From positions 1 through 27,662 of IMG/VR virus record IMGVR_UViG_3300030372_005099: a stretch of 27,662 nt of DNA. The stretch is one strand, 5' to 3'. The translations under genes and the position numbers were made by a program. Positions 3,118 to 26,671 of this stretch are shown here, one piece after another. The notes under the pieces were generated by a model. That model was not told where the DNA came from, did not search any database, and saw only the letters and a program-made list of their open reading frames with translations. Numbering within the stretch: position 1 is the first letter of the stretch; every line of letters starts with the position of its first letter. Source of the stretch: a virus. Lineage: Duplodnaviria; Caudoviricetes.

Positions 3118-3381
3118 TTATGATTTATTTTCGTCTACAATTTTCGTGACGGTCTCATGATTTAATATTTTAAATAACACTTCCAGATAGCCGCCAATCT
3201 TAACCCTGCTGGCGTTGTTAATCATTGCTGGATATTTTTGAGAATCATTATACATGTATCCGCTCAACAATCGGATTTGCTGGCTCATTTCAACGATAGC
3301 ATCAGATAGGTTTTCACAATCAGATTCGAGCTTTTGAATTGCTAGCTCTTGCTGTTTAATAATTTGTTCTTGATTAATCAT
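3118..3381 (-). CDS. Hypothetical coiled-coil protein
   Basis: 87-aa ORF with upstream RBS ACCGAGGA. Confidence 0.65.
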   Translation of the reverse strand: MINQEQIIKQQELAIQKLESDCENLSDAIVEMSQQIRLLSGYMYNDSQKYPAMINNASRVKIGGYLEVLFKILNHETVTKIVDENKS

Positions 3382-3436
3382 TTGGTTTTGTCCTCGGTGG
3401 TTTGGTTGTGCCCCCTTGCGGGGGCGGTGGGGGGGT

Positions 3437-3775
3437 TTAAAATATTTCTAGCTTTTCAATCAAAGAATCCAGCTTCATTAAGCTTGCTCGTTTTTCTTCC
3501 AACATTGGCCGGTAATCAAGCTCGTCACCTTTCATATTTCTAACCTCATCTTCTAGGAAGAAATATATCTCAAGCTCAAAACGCACATCCATATTGTTTG
3601 CAAATTTTATGACGCGCTCATCCCAATTTTTAATGGGGCCTTCTAATCCTAATATTTTACTTTTTCTAAGTAGAATAGTTATTGCCTGTTGTTCAATTTC
3701 GTTTATGTCCTCTTGGCTAAAAATTGTTTCAACGAAAATTTTGTTACCTTCTTCTTTTGTTATTGATGTAAGCAT
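3437..3775 (-). CDS. Hypothetical early protein
   Basis: ORF track. Start reassigned to ATG 3775 after RBS AACCGAGGA. Confidence 0.65.
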   Translation of the reverse strand: MLTSITKEEGNKIFVETIFSQEDINEIEQQAITILLRKSKILGLEGPIKNWDERVIKFANNMDVRFELEIYFFLEDEVRNMKGDELDYRPMLEEKRASLMKLDSLIEKLEIF

Positions 3776-3782
3776 TTTACGG

Positions 3783-3843
3783 TCCTCGGTTTGCGTTCTT
3801 GATTGAACAATTAATGAATACCATCTATTGTAATACAATGCAA
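3783..3843 (-). promoter_or_regulatory. Early promoter P3
   Basis: TTGCAT-17 bp (TGTATTACAATAGATGG)-TATTCA, then TGTTCAATCAAGAACG...AACCGAGGA. Confidence 0.75.
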
Positions 3844-3906
3844 ATTCTTTTTTTAAAAAAGGTTTTTAGGGTCAAATTCAGCAAAATATCTGAATGCTCA
3901 TAAAAC

Positions 3907-4002
3907 GCCCATAAATCGATTTTAAGCGCTTTTAGCCCTTAGCCTTATCGTAATACCTTTACAAAATAAAAACAAGAGTGCCCATCATACCTTGGTTTGC
4001 TG
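3907..4002. repeat. 96-bp dispersed non-coding repeat, copy A
   Basis: Ungapped match to 24036-24131, 79/96 identical by manual alignment. Confidence 0.9.
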
Positions 4003-4039
4003 CGGTTTTGCAATTTGCAATTATTCTGTAATTTATTAC

Positions 4040-19387: not shown

Positions 19388-19462
19388 AACCCCGCTAGCC
19401 TATTTATAAAACAAAATTTATGATTATTCATATTTTTTTTATTTTATTTTGGTAGCGGGGTT
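19388..19462 (-). promoter_or_regulatory. 10-bp inverted repeat enclosing an AT-rich promoter-like spacer and covering the protease RBS
   Basis: AACCCCGCTA (19388-19397) and TAGCGGGGTT (19453-19462). Confidence 0.5.
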
Positions 19463-19469
19463 TAAATTG

Positions 19470-19907
19470 CTAGTCATTCGCGCGCGTGCCAAACGCTCCA
19501 GCCCTTTTAAAGCCGGCGCCTTGTCTTGATACGCCTGACTTGCCAGACGCAGCCAGAGCGGCTTCACGGGCCTTTTTTCTTTCCTTGCGTTCAGCGATTA
19601 ATTTTAGCTTTCGTTCCACTTCTGAATTAAATGTTTCGGTGAATTCATCAAGGGTCGGCAAAGTCGCGCCCGCTTGCAAAAGCATTTCAACTTTTCGACC
19701 ATAAAACGAAATTGCGCCGGCTATCCATTTTTCATTAGGAAATTCCAATTTGAAATCCAGCTTGATTTGGTGCCAGTGTTCACCAGAAACAAGCTGGCCG
19801 TAAATGGTTAACAATTCATCTTTGAAAGGCAGCTCGCTAAACATGGTTTTCAGCCAGCCTTTGATAAACCAATTTGTGTAGTATTCAGTATCAATTTGAT
19901 TGGTCAT
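19470..19907 (-). CDS. Hypothetical protein (inserted cassette)
   Basis: Start reassigned to ATG 19907 after AAAGGA. Basic C-terminus. Confidence 0.65.
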   Translation of the reverse strand: MTNQIDTEYYTNWFIKGWLKTMFSELPFKDELLTIYGQLVSGEHWHQIKLDFKLEFPNEKWIAGAISFYGRKVEMLLQAGATLPTLDEFTETFNSEVERKLKLIAERKERKKAREAALAASGKSGVSRQGAGFKRAGAFGTRAND

Positions 19908-19911
19908 TTTT

Positions 19912-20184
19912 TTATCCTTTGGCCGATGTTCTAAAATCATTATTTATTGAAAACTCTAAAAGCTTTGATTTTGTGGCTTCGATTTCTTGCAGGTTTCGAA
20001 GGTGAACAAGCAGCTCGTCTAGATTTGAATCACGATACCAGTCATTTGATTGCTTTTCTAGATAAGGAATAAATTCCAAAGCTTCGTTAAGGTGATAATC
20101 AAGCTGCTCGTTCAGGCTGTGAGAAAAATCATCAAGAGTCGGAGCGGGGTTAAGTTCTGCAATGATTACGGGTTTGTCTTTCAT
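19912..20184 (-). CDS. Hypothetical protein directly downstream of the hammerhead
   Basis: 90 aa with RBS AACCAAGG. Confidence 0.65.
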   Translation of the reverse strand: MKDKPVIIAELNPAPTLDDFSHSLNEQLDYHLNEALEFIPYLEKQSNDWYRDSNLDELLVHLRNLQEIEATKSKLLEFSINNDFRTSAKG

Positions 20185-20208
20185 GGGTTTGCCTTGGTTA
20201 GTTGGTTT

Positions 20209-20259
20209 GCTGTTTCGTTCTTTTGAACTCGTCAGGAGCGGCGCACACCGCCCGACAGC
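20209..20259 (-). ncRNA. Type III hammerhead ribozyme
   Basis: GCUG-UC^-GGGCGG-UGUGCG-CCGCUC-CUGACGA-GUUC-AAAA-GAAC-GAAA-CAGC. Full CUGANGA/GAAA/GUC core and all three stems pair. Confidence 0.92.
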
Positions 20260-20284
20260 GGCCCCCCGTAGGGGGCGGCGGGGT

Positions 20285-20527
20285 TTATGCTCTGCTTTGT
20301 AATTCAGCTTGCATCATAACTATTTTTTCATTGTTGTAAGCAATATCAGCTTCGAAACGTTCACGTCTTTTGCCAATCATTTCGAGTGCGGCTGGGCATG
20401 TTTGATTTCTGTAATTATGCTCGTCATATTTAATCCCCGTCATCATTCGGGCTGTGTGATTTTCAAGTTGTTGAATGCGGGTTTGAATTGCTTTTGTGGT
20501 CATTGTTTCAAAGTCTGAAGAGTACAT
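20285..20527 (-). CDS. Hypothetical coiled-coil protein (first gene of the inserted cassette)
   Basis: 80 aa with RBS CCCAAGGA, downstream of promoter P6. Confidence 0.7.
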   Translation of the reverse strand: MYSSDFETMTTKAIQTRIQQLENHTARMMTGIKYDEHNYRNQTCPAALEMIGKRRERFEADIAYNNEKIVMMQAELQSRA

Positions 20528-20534
20528 TTTGTTT

Positions 20535-20595
20535 TCCTTGGGTGATGTTCTTGATTGAACAATTATATTATAGGCTATTGTAATACAATAAGCAA
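20535..20595 (-). promoter_or_regulatory. Early-type promoter P6 inside the head module
   Basis: TTGCTT-17 bp (ATTGTATTACAATAGCC)-TATAAT, then TGTTCAATCAAGAACA. Confidence 0.85.
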
Positions 20596-20666
20596 GCTTT
20601 ATTTTAAAATAAATTATATATTTCTTTAAAAGGCCGTGATAGCCGGCGTAAGAAAATTAATTTTTT

Positions 20667-23495
20667 TTAATCTTCTACCACAGGCAGCATCGTACAACGA
20701 CAATTTATATCCTGCTCAGCAATGCCAAACGAAGCTGGGCTCATTGCTTCAACGGTCTTCCCGTCTTTGTCTTTGCTTGTAAAGTTTTCATTAACGCCGA
20801 CGACTTGACCATCAAGCTCGTCATGTGCGGGTCTGACTTTATCGTCACGGGCTGATAACCACTCTTTGCGCATGCGAATACCCATTGCCGTTGCTTGTGT
20901 GAAAGCGTCCTGCGTTCCAAGGTTGGCCGCGCGCGTTGCTTCGGTTTGCGCAATCAACTTGGCACGCTTGGCGCCAAACACCTTGCCGGATGACTCCAGC
21001 TCTTTTGCAATCTGTTTAATCGGCTTGCCGTCCTGTAAAGCTTGGTCAACCAAGTCTGTTATTTGTGTCGATTGTGTGCGCACGATTTGCCGCGTGAACA
21101 AATCAATGTAGCCGTCGACCTCGGTCGGGTCAATCGTTTGACCCTCATATGGTATTTTACTTTGCTTGATTATGTCCTTGATTGATGCGTCGCCGCTTTT
21201 CTGATACCAAAGCCGCCAACGGGCGCCAATGATAAAGGCCGCATTACGGCGCTCTCCCGCTTCATCAAGCAGCTCGCTGTAATCGGTTACGCCCTTGGTC
21301 ATTGACGGCGTGACATATTCTTCAACGCGGTCAGCGTAACGTTTTGCCGCGCCTCTGAGATATGCACGGGTTGCGCGCTCGATACTTCGTAAAGCGGGTT
21401 CATTGTAATTTTTAATCCACGTTTGCCAGAGGTCGGTCCGTGCTTTTTCTTTCAGGTTTTTCTTTTTCACTTCGTTTATTATTGACCGCATTTTATCAAG
21501 ACCAAGCTCGCCAACGACAAACCATTTTATTTGCGCCACGATTCCAGCTATGGTTGAAATGTTAGGGCTCGGCGGGTCTTCATCATTGAATTGCGCGCCG
21601 TCACCGAAATGACGCGCCGCCCACGCTTCGCGGTCCCGTATTGCTTTCTCTTCGGTGTTGGTGTCTGGCGATTTTTTCGAGCGGCCGACGATGTCTTTAA
21701 GCCGGTTGTATTGTGCGTTTCCTTCGATGTTACCGCCGGCCTTCCATATATCAGGATAATTTTCTTTAAGGTCTTCAGCAAAGGCCAAAGGGAAAACCTC
21801 AAAATTTGAATTGCTCAATGAAACGCTTTCGTCGTCGCCATCCTTTGGAAAATTGGTCGGGTCTTCATCGCCCACGGCGCGCGCCGTGTCCTTTTCTCGT
21901 GAGCTTAAAGGGTGGTCGGGTGGTAGCAAATCGGTGTCGTATGGCTTGCGCTTAAATTTAAGGTTTCTTAATGCAAATAACAAGCCGTTGACGCGCGCCA
22001 TTCCCCATTGCTCGGCGCTTTGCACTGAGGGCCGAACGCTTGACGGGTTTGTTTCATACGCGCCAATACCGCGCAAATATGACACGGCTAAAATTTGTTT
22101 CGTTGTGCGCTTTCGCGGGTCGGTGCCGACTTCTTCTTTGTGGTCTGCCACCTTTCTTTCTAAAGCCAGCTGCGTGCTTTCGCTTAGGCTTTCAAATGCT
22201 TCTTTTCTGTTTTCATAGGTAGATAAATCATCGTTTTTTTTTACAGCGTACAACCGCGCCAAATACCCGCGCACGTCTTCGGCCGTCTCGTCGCTGTAAT
22301 CGGCTTCTGACCCCTCTATATCTTCGGGATAATCTAAGCCCTCATACTTGTATGCGGCGCGGGTGTTGATGCCGTTTAGTATGTGCATTTGTACCCTGTT
22401 AAGCTGCTCGGTCCTTGACTCCTGCAAGGCTTCAACGCCGCTGTAATCATGTTCAAATTGCAGCTCTGTATCAAACTTTCTAGCGATGATTGTAAACAAC
22501 AAGCTTAACCGCTTGCCGCGCTTTGTTTGGACGCTCCAATAGTTGCGCGCTTGCTGGCGGCTAAGGGCATAATTTGCACTTGGCAAGCCTAAAACCGACG
22601 GCGGCACGCCGGTGACACTGCTGATGCTTTCGCGCGCCATTTCCCTTGCGCGGCTGTATTCCATTTCTCGCGGCGATAGTTGCAAAGGCGACACCTCGGC
22701 AAGTCCGCTTAATACCATGGCGCCCCCATTGGCGCTGAGCTTCCTGTACTGGCTCGCGATGTCGCGGCGCATATCGGCGCCCCAAATGTCGGCGGGGTCT
22801 TTAGGACTGATTAGCAAATCGGGCCGCGCTTGCGCGCTTGCGTTGCTCACAAGGTTTTGGCTGTTGATGTCAGCTTGTATCTCACGCGCTAGCGGTTCAA
22901 TTGCGCCGGTGCCCATGAGCTCAGACGGGCCGCTTTTCCATGATGGTAAACGGCCATGTATCACGCGTTCAGCTGGATATGTTACGGTTTGACCGCCTGA
23001 CCGGTATATGTAAGCAATAACGCCGGTTTTGTCGGTCACTGGCTGAATGTTGGAAGGGTGCAGCCTTATGATGCTTGTCGGCTGTTCAGTTTGGCCCAAT
23101 AAAAGAATGAAGCAATTACCGGTTAGTATCATGTCGGTCACGAGCTGCTCTCTAAACAAGAACCCGTCGACATTTGAGCTCGGCTGTGTCATTAAATCAA
23201 TTACTGGGTGGTCTTCAATCAAGACGCGGTCTTTACCTTTCAAGAGGCGCAAAGGCAACGCCGCCAAATCTTCCGACGCTCGACTAACGGCGGCATAGGT
23301 GTAACCGTGGCCGCTGTAAGCACTCATCGCGTCGTTGGGGCTGTAAGTCGGACGCACGCCCATTGGCTGTGCATAGGTCGCGCCGTGGTCAACCGTTACG
23401 GGCTTGGCTTGCAAATTTTGCAATGACTTTGTTTCTGTTGAATAAAAAAGGCTGGCTATTCTAAACCAGAATCCGCTTTTCGTTGTATCTGACAT
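20667..23495 (-). CDS. Portal protein fused through inserted domains to a MuF (SPP1 gp7-like) domain
   Basis: N-terminal HK97-type portal ('ASEDLAALPL', 'LTGNCF', 'ISSVTGVPPSVLG'). C-terminal MuF ('RAKLIAQTE...KEWLSARDDKVRPAH...INCRC'). Confidence 0.9.
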   Translation of the reverse strand: MSDTTKSGFWFRIASLFYSTETKSLQNLQAKPVTVDHGATYAQPMGVRPTYSPNDAMSAYSGHGYTYAAVSRASEDLAALPLRLLKGKDRVLIEDHPVIDLMTQPSSNVDGFLFREQLVTDMILTGNCFILLLGQTEQPTSIIRLHPSNIQPVTDKTGVIAYIYRSGGQTVTYPAERVIHGRLPSWKSGPSELMGTGAIEPLAREIQADINSQNLVSNASAQARPDLLISPKDPADIWGADMRRDIASQYRKLSANGGAMVLSGLAEVSPLQLSPREMEYSRAREMARESISSVTGVPPSVLGLPSANYALSRQQARNYWSVQTKRGKRLSLLFTIIARKFDTELQFEHDYSGVEALQESRTEQLNRVQMHILNGINTRAAYKYEGLDYPEDIEGSEADYSDETAEDVRGYLARLYAVKKNDDLSTYENRKEAFESLSESTQLALERKVADHKEEVGTDPRKRTTKQILAVSYLRGIGAYETNPSSVRPSVQSAEQWGMARVNGLLFALRNLKFKRKPYDTDLLPPDHPLSSREKDTARAVGDEDPTNFPKDGDDESVSLSNSNFEVFPLAFAEDLKENYPDIWKAGGNIEGNAQYNRLKDIVGRSKKSPDTNTEEKAIRDREAWAARHFGDGAQFNDEDPPSPNISTIAGIVAQIKWFVVGELGLDKMRSIINEVKKKNLKEKARTDLWQTWIKNYNEPALRSIERATRAYLRGAAKRYADRVEEYVTPSMTKGVTDYSELLDEAGERRNAAFIIGARWRLWYQKSGDASIKDIIKQSKIPYEGQTIDPTEVDGYIDLFTRQIVRTQSTQITDLVDQALQDGKPIKQIAKELESSGKVFGAKRAKLIAQTEATRAANLGTQDAFTQATAMGIRMRKEWLSARDDKVRPAHDELDGQVVGVNENFTSKDKDGKTVEAMSPASFGIAEQDINCRCTMLPVVED

Positions 23496-23932: not shown

Positions 23933-24035
23933 TTTATCCTTGGCAAAAAAAAGATAGCCCGCTTTGGCTGGTCAATCAAGAGTAATTTTTTTTTGATGGC
24001 CAAAAACAGCCAAATCCAACAAATCGATAGAATAG

Positions 24036-24131
24036 GCCCTAAAATCGATTTTAAGCGTTTTTAAGGCTAAGCCTTATCGTAATACCTTTAATCATTTAGG
24101 AAAAGAGTGCCGATGATACCTTGGTTTGCTG
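24036..24131. repeat. 96-bp dispersed non-coding repeat, copy B
   Basis: Matches 3907-4002 in the same orientation. Confidence 0.9.
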
Positions 24132-24165
24132 GCTTTTTCGATTTCGGAGCTTTTGCTGTATTTTT

Positions 24166-26488: not shown

Positions 26489-26671
26489 TTATTTTTTGGT
26501 CTTCATAAACTGGTTAACGGCATGCACTATAACGCTTGAACGATTGACGCCGCTGGTCTTGGCCAAGTCGTCGAGCCTTGCCAGCATGTCGGGTTTCATT
26601 CGAACACAAACAATTTTAGTGCTGCCACCATGAGCGGCCGCGCCGCGATTCATTAATTTTATATCTGACAT
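26489..26671 (-). CDS. Ribbon-helix-helix (CopG/Arc-like) regulator
   Basis: 'KIVCVRMKPDMLARLDDLAKTSGVNRSSVIVHAVNQF'; RBS AGGAGG. Confidence 0.85.
   Translation of the reverse strand: MSDIKLMNRGAAAHGGSTKIVCVRMKPDMLARLDDLAKTSGVNRSSVIVHAVNQFMKTKK

Follow-up and report, generated by a model that had tools for sequence, protein, structure and literature searches.

The early RNase III sites of phage T7 are cut just upstream of the ribosome-binding site (RBS) by a host enzyme, leaving a fixed 5′ end, and Felletti et al. reportedly found in 2017 that for twister ribozymes in bacterial 3′ UTRs the structures left after cleavage set mRNA stability, which would lessen the novelty of the mechanism put forward below. 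Hammerhead ribozymes that punctuate phage genes have been known since 2011. In the accessible text of Perreault et al. 2011 (PMC3088659), hammerheads flank variable genes in prophages and cleave in native transcripts, their proposed role is to cut long phage transcripts into gene-length mRNAs, and in haloviruses one hammerhead lies 13 nt before the start of an early gene. The available part of a 2019 review (PMC6765202) repeats the processing proposal and treats the purpose of self-cleaving ribozymes near phage genes as unsettled. In the available part of a 2026 preprint about finding ribozymes, the word phage does not occur. As outlined in the accessible sections of Arbiol et al. 2010 (PMC2839356), the PeSL cassettes of T4-like phages consist of repeated sigma70-like promoters and terminator stem-loops bounding exchangeable small genes. 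The engineered RiboJ is cut just upstream of the RBS and gives a fixed 5′ end regardless of upstream context (PMC8750797, accessible part).

The locus described here lies in a window that is a whole virus record of 27,662 bp, rated 93% complete. It shares with the clusters of Perreault et al., as the accessible text presents them, a phage genome, a position between small variable genes and the sense orientation; several ribozymes flank genes in one such cluster, whereas a single copy is present here. Like the PeSL cassettes, it has repeated promoter and stem-loop blocks at the borders of gene exchange. PeSL stem-loops are described as terminators, whereas some of those found here lack a U-tract and one is followed by a ribozyme, in a small tailed phage unrelated to T4. 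The likeness to RiboJ and to the T7 sites is one of description, not of sequence. What the analysis adds is a topology rule, by which an extra hairpin accompanies type III hammerheads, together with a natural empty control in the same genome. Neither a type III-specific upstream hairpin nor a ribozyme-free twin site is described in the accessible text of PMC3088659, whose supplementary alignment may already contain the type III subfamily. No account of such a hairpin in phages, or of filled and empty sites, was found in the literature searched, most subscription papers lying outside it.

Genome Setting and the Three-Gene Cassette

The record is that of a tailed phage, because it encodes a portal-Mu F fusion, a head protease, a major capsid protein, a tail tube and terminase subunits, along with RusA, an ERF recombinase and ArdC. 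Metagenome runs containing the window are labelled marine, seawater or viral metagenome; no RNA run is among those listed, which is neutral as to expression, and DNA contigs from four of the runs were compared across the region. The best terminase match among GenBank phages reaches 27% identity, and the ribozyme-spacer module gave no blastn match to GenBank phages. In the portal protein, the fusion to the Mu F head-morphogenesis domain includes a long unassigned middle part and totals 942 aa (20667-23495, minus strand). Three orphan ORFs of 80, 90 and 145 aa form a cassette between the portal gene and the protease gene, with the following features:

20527..20617, minus strand, repeated promoter block (repeat family D1; putative promoter function), one of five copies
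20595-20590, minus strand, −35 box TTGCTT, followed by a 17-nt spacer and the −10 box TATAAT at 20572-20567
20589-20577, minus strand, palindrome within the promoter spacer, likely operator
20560, minus strand, predicted +1, with a weak leader hairpin at 20560-20547 and a CCAAGGA RBS at 20541-20535
20285..20527, minus strand, 80-aa ORF, first gene of the cassette, no Pfam or PHROG match
19912..20184, minus strand, 90-aa ORF with ATG at 20184, no Pfam or PHROG match
19470..19907, minus strand, 145-aa ORF (156 aa from an upstream ATG at 19940), no Pfam or PHROG match
19388..19462, minus strand, long hairpin at the cassette end (inverted repeat I10), which folds in the window and in its relative L021
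1797-1887, 2570-2660, 3775-3865, 5616-5706 and 20527-20617, minus strand, the five copies of the promoter block, a 91-nt repeat

The promoter block at 20527..20617, which also has an A/T-rich tract upstream of its −35 box, was missed by a consensus scan because that box matches at 3/6 positions. Inspected by eye, the five copies share one build: −35 and −10 boxes (the latter weak in the copy at 3808) separated by 17 nt that contain a complete or incomplete palindrome, then a short hairpin in the leader and an RBS. The other four copies lie in the region that holds ArdC and ERF, one of them ahead of ardC, and the repeated promoter and this company suggest that the cassette may be expressed early. 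A sixth promoter-like site with half of this palindrome is seen near 4950-4910. Candidate repressors for the palindrome are a ribbon-helix-helix protein (26489-26671) and an HTH protein encoded in the same genome.

The three small proteins belong to no Pfam or PHROG family, and the Atlas gave nothing usable on their function. Close matches number 3 for the 90-aa, 5 for the 80-aa and 3 for the 145-aa protein, two of these three counts including the window's own protein; the 5 homologues of the 80-aa ORF are 71-90% identical, and its Atlas matches are all below 0.9. At the cassette end, the head protease gene has its likely RBS region within the 3′ arm of the hairpin at 19388-19462, whose A/T-rich interior holds TATAAATA at 19408. 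The hairpin could keep this late gene silent on RNA that reads through, and an inner promoter would bypass it, an arrangement with a parallel in T4.

The Hammerhead Motif and Its Detection

The ribozyme occupies the spacer between the 80-aa and 90-aa genes, and its parts and immediate flanks are as follows:

20261..20276, minus strand, 6-bp GC hairpin with a C(UACG)G loop and no U-tract, −13.8 kcal/mol, 1 nt before stem III
20209..20259, minus strand, type III hammerhead ribozyme, 51 nt (direct reading, Infernal, descriptor, family covariation)
20259-20256 and 20212-20209, minus strand, 5′ and 3′ arms of stem III, 4 bp, open
20255 and 20254, minus strand, cleavage triplet letters U16.1 and C17
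20253-20248 with 20241-20236, minus strand, stem I, 6 bp with one G.U, closed by loop I UGUGCG
20235-20229 and 20216-20213, minus strand, core segments CUGACGA and GAAA
20228-20225 with 20220-20217, minus strand, stem II, 4 bp, closed by loop AAAA
20185..20208, minus strand, A/C-rich linker with the RBS-like AACCAAGG at 20199-20192, 24 nt to the start codon

An earlier note, made from the letters alone, had proposed a complete type III hammerhead on the minus strand with its core and stems I-III, cleaving between 20254 and 20253, a C(UACG)G hairpin just upstream and an RBS and ATG just downstream. Every element of the ribozyme lies at the place named there, the flanking elements are likewise as described, and direct reading of the GUC triplet puts the predicted cut at the same position. 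The Infernal search that it had suggested matched the full Rfam Hammerhead_3 model RF00008 at 20207-20261 with 37.8 bits and E=6.4e-5, below the gathering score of 48.5 bits. Calculated for the single genome the E-value is 1.5e-8, and 0/14 control genomes were matched. The model under-covers the phage subfamily, judging by the other phage hammerhead members, which also score 28-44 bits on it. A descriptor for types I, II and III found one match in the 27,662 bp of both strands, the site at 20259-20209, and none in 100 dinucleotide-matched random genomes.

No second hammerhead was found by the descriptor on either strand of the record (rated, as noted, 93% complete), and Infernal matched no other ribozyme family in Rfam with an E-value of 1 or less. 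With no second ribozyme in the record, the idea that tandem ribozymes form circles was rejected.

With RF00008 ribozymes whose loop-loop contact is of the tobacco ringspot satellite class, the site shares the core CUGANGA and GAAA, the NUH triplet, closed stems I and II, an open stem III, a U next to position 1.6 and the final A of the stem II tetraloop. Loop I starts with this U and loop II ends with this A, the A being fixed by the search pattern family-wide; both are the letters of a conserved Hoogsteen contact in fast natural hammerheads, according to the accessible part of PMC2553840. In contrast to that class, loop II is AAAA rather than the usual GNRA, the setting is intergenic in a DNA phage, the score falls under the gathering score and an extra hairpin abuts stem III. 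By its sequence, 20209-20259 is a genuine, well-formed type III hammerhead motif of a kind already known.

Close Relatives and the Wider Family

In the relative L021, which is 92-94% identical to the window, the core and the upstream hairpin are kept, while the G.U of stem I has become G-C, a C-G of stem II has become U.G, and the variable core position and one loop letter have changed. Another relative, L283, keeps the promoter, the 80-aa gene, the hairpin and the ribozyme, whose stem II is mismatched at its top; directly behind the RBS, another gene takes the place of the 90-aa ORF. No conserved core letter is changed in either, and the hairpin at 20261-20276 is unchanged in L021, L283 and L284, the last of which is 99.9% identical to the window, may be the same population and is thus not independent. 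A fourth candidate, L282, proved to be a chance pattern match without a hammerhead and was dropped. In L021 (1735-2186), an extra unit of a promoter and a 111-aa gene stands in tandem before the 80-aa gene.

A search pattern prescribing the core, the letters of loop II, the basal pair of stem II and the stem III 3′ arm gave 123 viral loci. Among its distinct viral matches with enough flank, stem II was paired at each of its three free positions in 100/100, and 96/100 had a cleavage triplet together with stem I pairing over 5 bp or more. The window's geometry, a 6-bp stem I with a 6-nt loop, recurred in 90/100, and loop I began with U in 90/90. Alignment of 54 cores, 53 of them distinct, gave pairing in 98.9% of cells and two-sided changes in 11/14 pairs, including 6/6 stem I pairs; the rows of this alignment were chosen for pairing, and the count over 100 matches is the unbiased one.

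The same pattern found 131 loci in prokaryote genomes (L286-L416). By a hand count, about 92/131 of their record titles name Patescibacteria groups such as Saccharibacteria and Paceibacterota, and several of these contigs hold two or three hammerhead copies. Among the viral contigs, L009, L011, L004, L148, L203, L223, L234 and L002 contain two to four hammerheads of mixed type within 1-3 kb, with one ribozyme at each of several gene borders, and in L002 a hammerhead is paired with a twister-P3 ribozyme.

A Hairpin That Depends on Ribozyme Type

Gene layout was compared between ribozyme types in 281 loci plus the window. Descriptor matches with at least 130 nt upstream and at least 60 nt downstream comprised 122 type III and 105 type I ribozymes, which were reduced to 71 and 101, respectively, by collapsing similar upstream sequences. 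A same-strand start codon lies within 45 nt downstream in 63/71 type III (0/71 on the other strand) and in 87/101 type I loci (6 on the other strand). Contact or overlap with the upstream stop codon is the usual arrangement in type I, whereas type III ribozymes mostly lie 21-39 nt past it, with a hairpin in the gap. At the window site the ribozyme lies 25 nt from the upstream stop codon and 24 nt from the start codon, the family median of the latter distance being 23 nt. Its layout places 20209-20259 in a widespread subfamily with the order stop codon, hairpin, ribozyme, RBS and start.

Hairpins at or below −8 kcal/mol whose end lies no more than 6 nt from the ribozyme were present in 49/71 type III loci, against 4 at a control position and 12.8 expected by shuffling, and in 7/101 type I loci, against 6 and 5.8; 22/71 type III loci had none at this cut-off. 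P-values are overstated, as the search pattern behind most of the type III loci picks out a single subfamily and clustering left related sequences in the set; a single search without fixed loop II gave hairpins in 6/13 type III against 7/78 type I loci (Fisher p=0.003). A replicate in prokaryote genomes gave 55/112 (18 at the control position; 11.5 in shuffles). Within this comparison, the abutting upstream hairpin is specific to type III. The earlier note had predicted that cleavage gives a hairpin-ended upstream mRNA and a 5′-OH downstream mRNA, and the difference between the two types lends support to these predicted products.

The gap between hairpin and ribozyme is 0 nt in 40/49 loci, and the 3′ overhang after the predicted cut is 6-7 nt in 40/49. 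A U-tract follows the hairpin in 5/49; an A-tract precedes it in 14/49 and could terminate antisense transcription. A role of the hairpin at 20261-20276 as a sense-strand terminator was rejected, given its lack of a U-tract, the rarity of U-tracts in the family and the absence of any called minus-strand terminator. The extra hairpin may be tied to type III because an upstream product made by type I cleavage would already have a closed stem III at its 3′ end, and this stem folds at −5 kcal/mol or better in 96/101 type I ribozymes; type III cleavage without the added hairpin would leave a short single strand there. The type I ribozyme L100 uses as its stem III a 26-nt hairpin that stands upstream of three type III ribozymes, and a 12-nt piece of the window's hairpin is found as stem III in L213.

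This type-dependent hairpin is comparative evidence for selection on the 3′ end of the upstream mRNA, and such selection would point to mRNA processing rather than to replication or circle formation. As a separate observation, many type III ribozymes that differ in stem I share a palindromic hairpin core upstream of them, which is also found as stem III of a type I (L023, L026, L030, L031, L037, L046, L047, L079, L081, L090, L094, L100, L101 and others), and its recurrence suggests a shared origin or a binding site.

An Empty Spacer in the Same Genome

A second spacer in the window closely resembles the ribozyme site:

3381..3439, minus strand, "empty" spacer without a ribozyme; its alignment with the ribozyme site leaves one 51-column gap that is exactly the ribozyme

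It runs from a stop codon through a C-run, a GC hairpin at 3425-3410 without a U-tract, an A/C-rich linker and a CCGAGG RBS to an ATG at 3381. The flanks of the ribozyme site have their best genome-wide match here, scoring 48, where 200 shuffles averaged 30.6 and reached at most 43. The same type of GC hairpin follows four stop codons (the ribozyme site, 4982, 3425 and 1917); U-rich tails come after those at 1917 and 4982, and at 3425 the linker follows directly. By these comparisons, one hairpin is present here in three states, with a U-tract, bare and with a ribozyme. The filled and empty sites reflect either ribozyme gain at one or loss at the other. The ribozyme is dispensable at a similar junction, because the empty site runs without one. 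In a contig from metagenome run X6, positions 3432-3772 are replaced by 303 other letters, between the promoter leader and the hairpin, so that the swap concerns the gene in front of the empty site. In the window this is a 112-aa gene, for which no viral relative was found. The filled and empty spacers of one genome provide a ready natural pair for reporter comparison.

Proposed Mechanism and Alternative Models

The reading favoured here is that the ribozyme likely cuts a three-gene transcript into two stable products, a hairpin-ended upstream mRNA and a separate downstream mRNA. The cassette would be transcribed from about 20560, and the ribozyme would cut once, after the GUC at 20254. Of the two pieces, the upstream one with the 80-aa gene would close with the GC hairpin, a 7-nt tail and a cyclic phosphate; its 3′ end would resemble that left by a terminator, with RNA polymerase reading on. 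The downstream one, carrying the 90-aa and 145-aa genes, would have a 5′-OH on the first base of stem I, which would form a 5′-terminal hairpin about 55 nt ahead of the RBS. The likely gain is that decay and translation would be separate for each piece, whatever gene is shuffled alongside, and a module of this kind would offer a compact natural insulator for multi-gene constructs. In the accessible part of PMC3997798, 3′ ends are shielded by terminator hairpins, and RppH acts preferentially on 5′ ends that are single-stranded. The same text also argues against stable products, in that five added A residues are enough to stimulate exonuclease attack on a stem-loop in E. coli and a 5′-OH end is an entry point for RNase J1 in Bacillus. 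Also weighing against the favoured reading, the active fold is not dominant in ViennaRNA, and the similar spacer at 3439-3381 runs without a ribozyme.

An extension of this model, which we put forward tentatively and hold to be possible rather than probable, treats the hairpin and the type III hammerhead as a distinct portable "read-through terminator" in which the ribozyme replaces the U-tract. Each swapped-in early gene would thereby obtain its own stable mRNA from one promoter, and stem III would do the same job in type I, so that the extra hairpin would be a matter of topology.

The same cut might instead act as a glmS-like timer, destabilising the downstream genes as a 5′ exonuclease degrades the 5′-OH product, so that genes 2 and 3 would be expressed briefly or at a lower level than gene 1. 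RNase J1 degrades the 5′-OH product of glmS cleavage, according to the accessible part of PMC3997798, and the extra hairpin stands on the upstream side only, the 40 nt downstream being unstructured (median −1.5 kcal/mol). We nevertheless consider a timer unlikely, given that the type III product begins with a paired first base in stem I and that the RBS-start spacing is tightly kept.

Gene exchange offers a further explanation of the spacer, whose main use would be to supply homology for the exchange of small genes, as in the PeSL shuffling of T4-like phages (PMC2839356, accessible sections), with the ribozyme riding along and affecting expression little. Swaps do end at these blocks: L283 diverges after the RBS, a contig from run X17 departs from the window at 20188, the replacement in X6 spans 3432-3772 and L021 carries an extra unit; the empty site, moreover, works without a ribozyme. 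Recombination, however, needs identity and not pairing, whereas the family keeps pairing while its sequence changes, L021 and L283 have lost no conserved core letter and the genome holds only one copy of the ribozyme. As the main reason for the module this seems quite unlikely, although a homology-block role can coexist with a processing role.

Folding predictions bear on two models of how the ribozyme might be controlled or assisted. In ViennaRNA, which omits the tertiary contact, the active fold makes up 1-43% of the ensemble depending on span and is level with a rival fold (−36.6 against −36.7 kcal/mol). If the rival fold with the region of the upstream stop codon blocked the ribozyme until a terminating ribosome freed it, the cut would be coupled to translation of gene 1, and the predicted share of the active fold is indeed 0.05 when 15 nt of coding sequence are included, 0.23 when the RNA begins at the stop codon and 0.43 when it begins at the hairpin. 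L021, in which stem I forms to 98%, has substitutions at the competing bases, and stem III is weakly predicted family-wide (mean 0.18), which probably reflects a limit of the energy model; such gating is accordingly judged improbable.

It is more doubtful still that the upstream hairpin is a folding aid, either an insulator or a coaxial stack on the open stem III, in place of a 3′ shield. Its direct contact with stem III in most loci would suit this role, as would the stem I pairing of 0.89 with the native against 0.79 with shuffled upstream sequence, and in silico removal of the hairpin abolished the predicted active fold at the window site. Stem III pairing, on the other hand, is not raised (0.18 against 0.24, coaxial stacking lying outside the model), type I ribozymes also have an open stem yet lack the hairpin, and at the empty site the same hairpin occurs with no ribozyme to assist.

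The suggestion of the earlier note that stem II imitates the leader hairpin of the early promoters, letting the cut product pass as a primary early 5′ end, draws on the GUUC...GAAC common to both and on a leader stem kept in 5/5 promoter copies, but it is largely refuted by comparison and has next to no credibility, since the cut product starts with stem I and stem II lies 25 nt inside it, GUUC-AAAA-GAAC is the commonest stem II in other phages (12/48 clustered type III from the 123 pattern loci) whose loci lack the leader, the leader motif occurs in only 2/281 loci (L021 and L146, both from the one close relative; loci of 0.4-7 kb), the leader hairpin is marginal (−1.1 to −2.5 kcal/mol), and stem II changes in L021 and L283 while the leader does not.

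Other Repeats in the Genome

Two intergenic regions, 3902-4009 and 24031-24138, share a 108-nt repeat that is 80% identical between them, each copy with a AACCAAGG motif and a palindromic stretch. Repeats of a 17-nt word with C-runs are found at both contig ends (1-50 and 27630-27662), beside an ORF at about 1-270 on the minus strand, and are possibly origin iterons in a replication gene broken by assembly.
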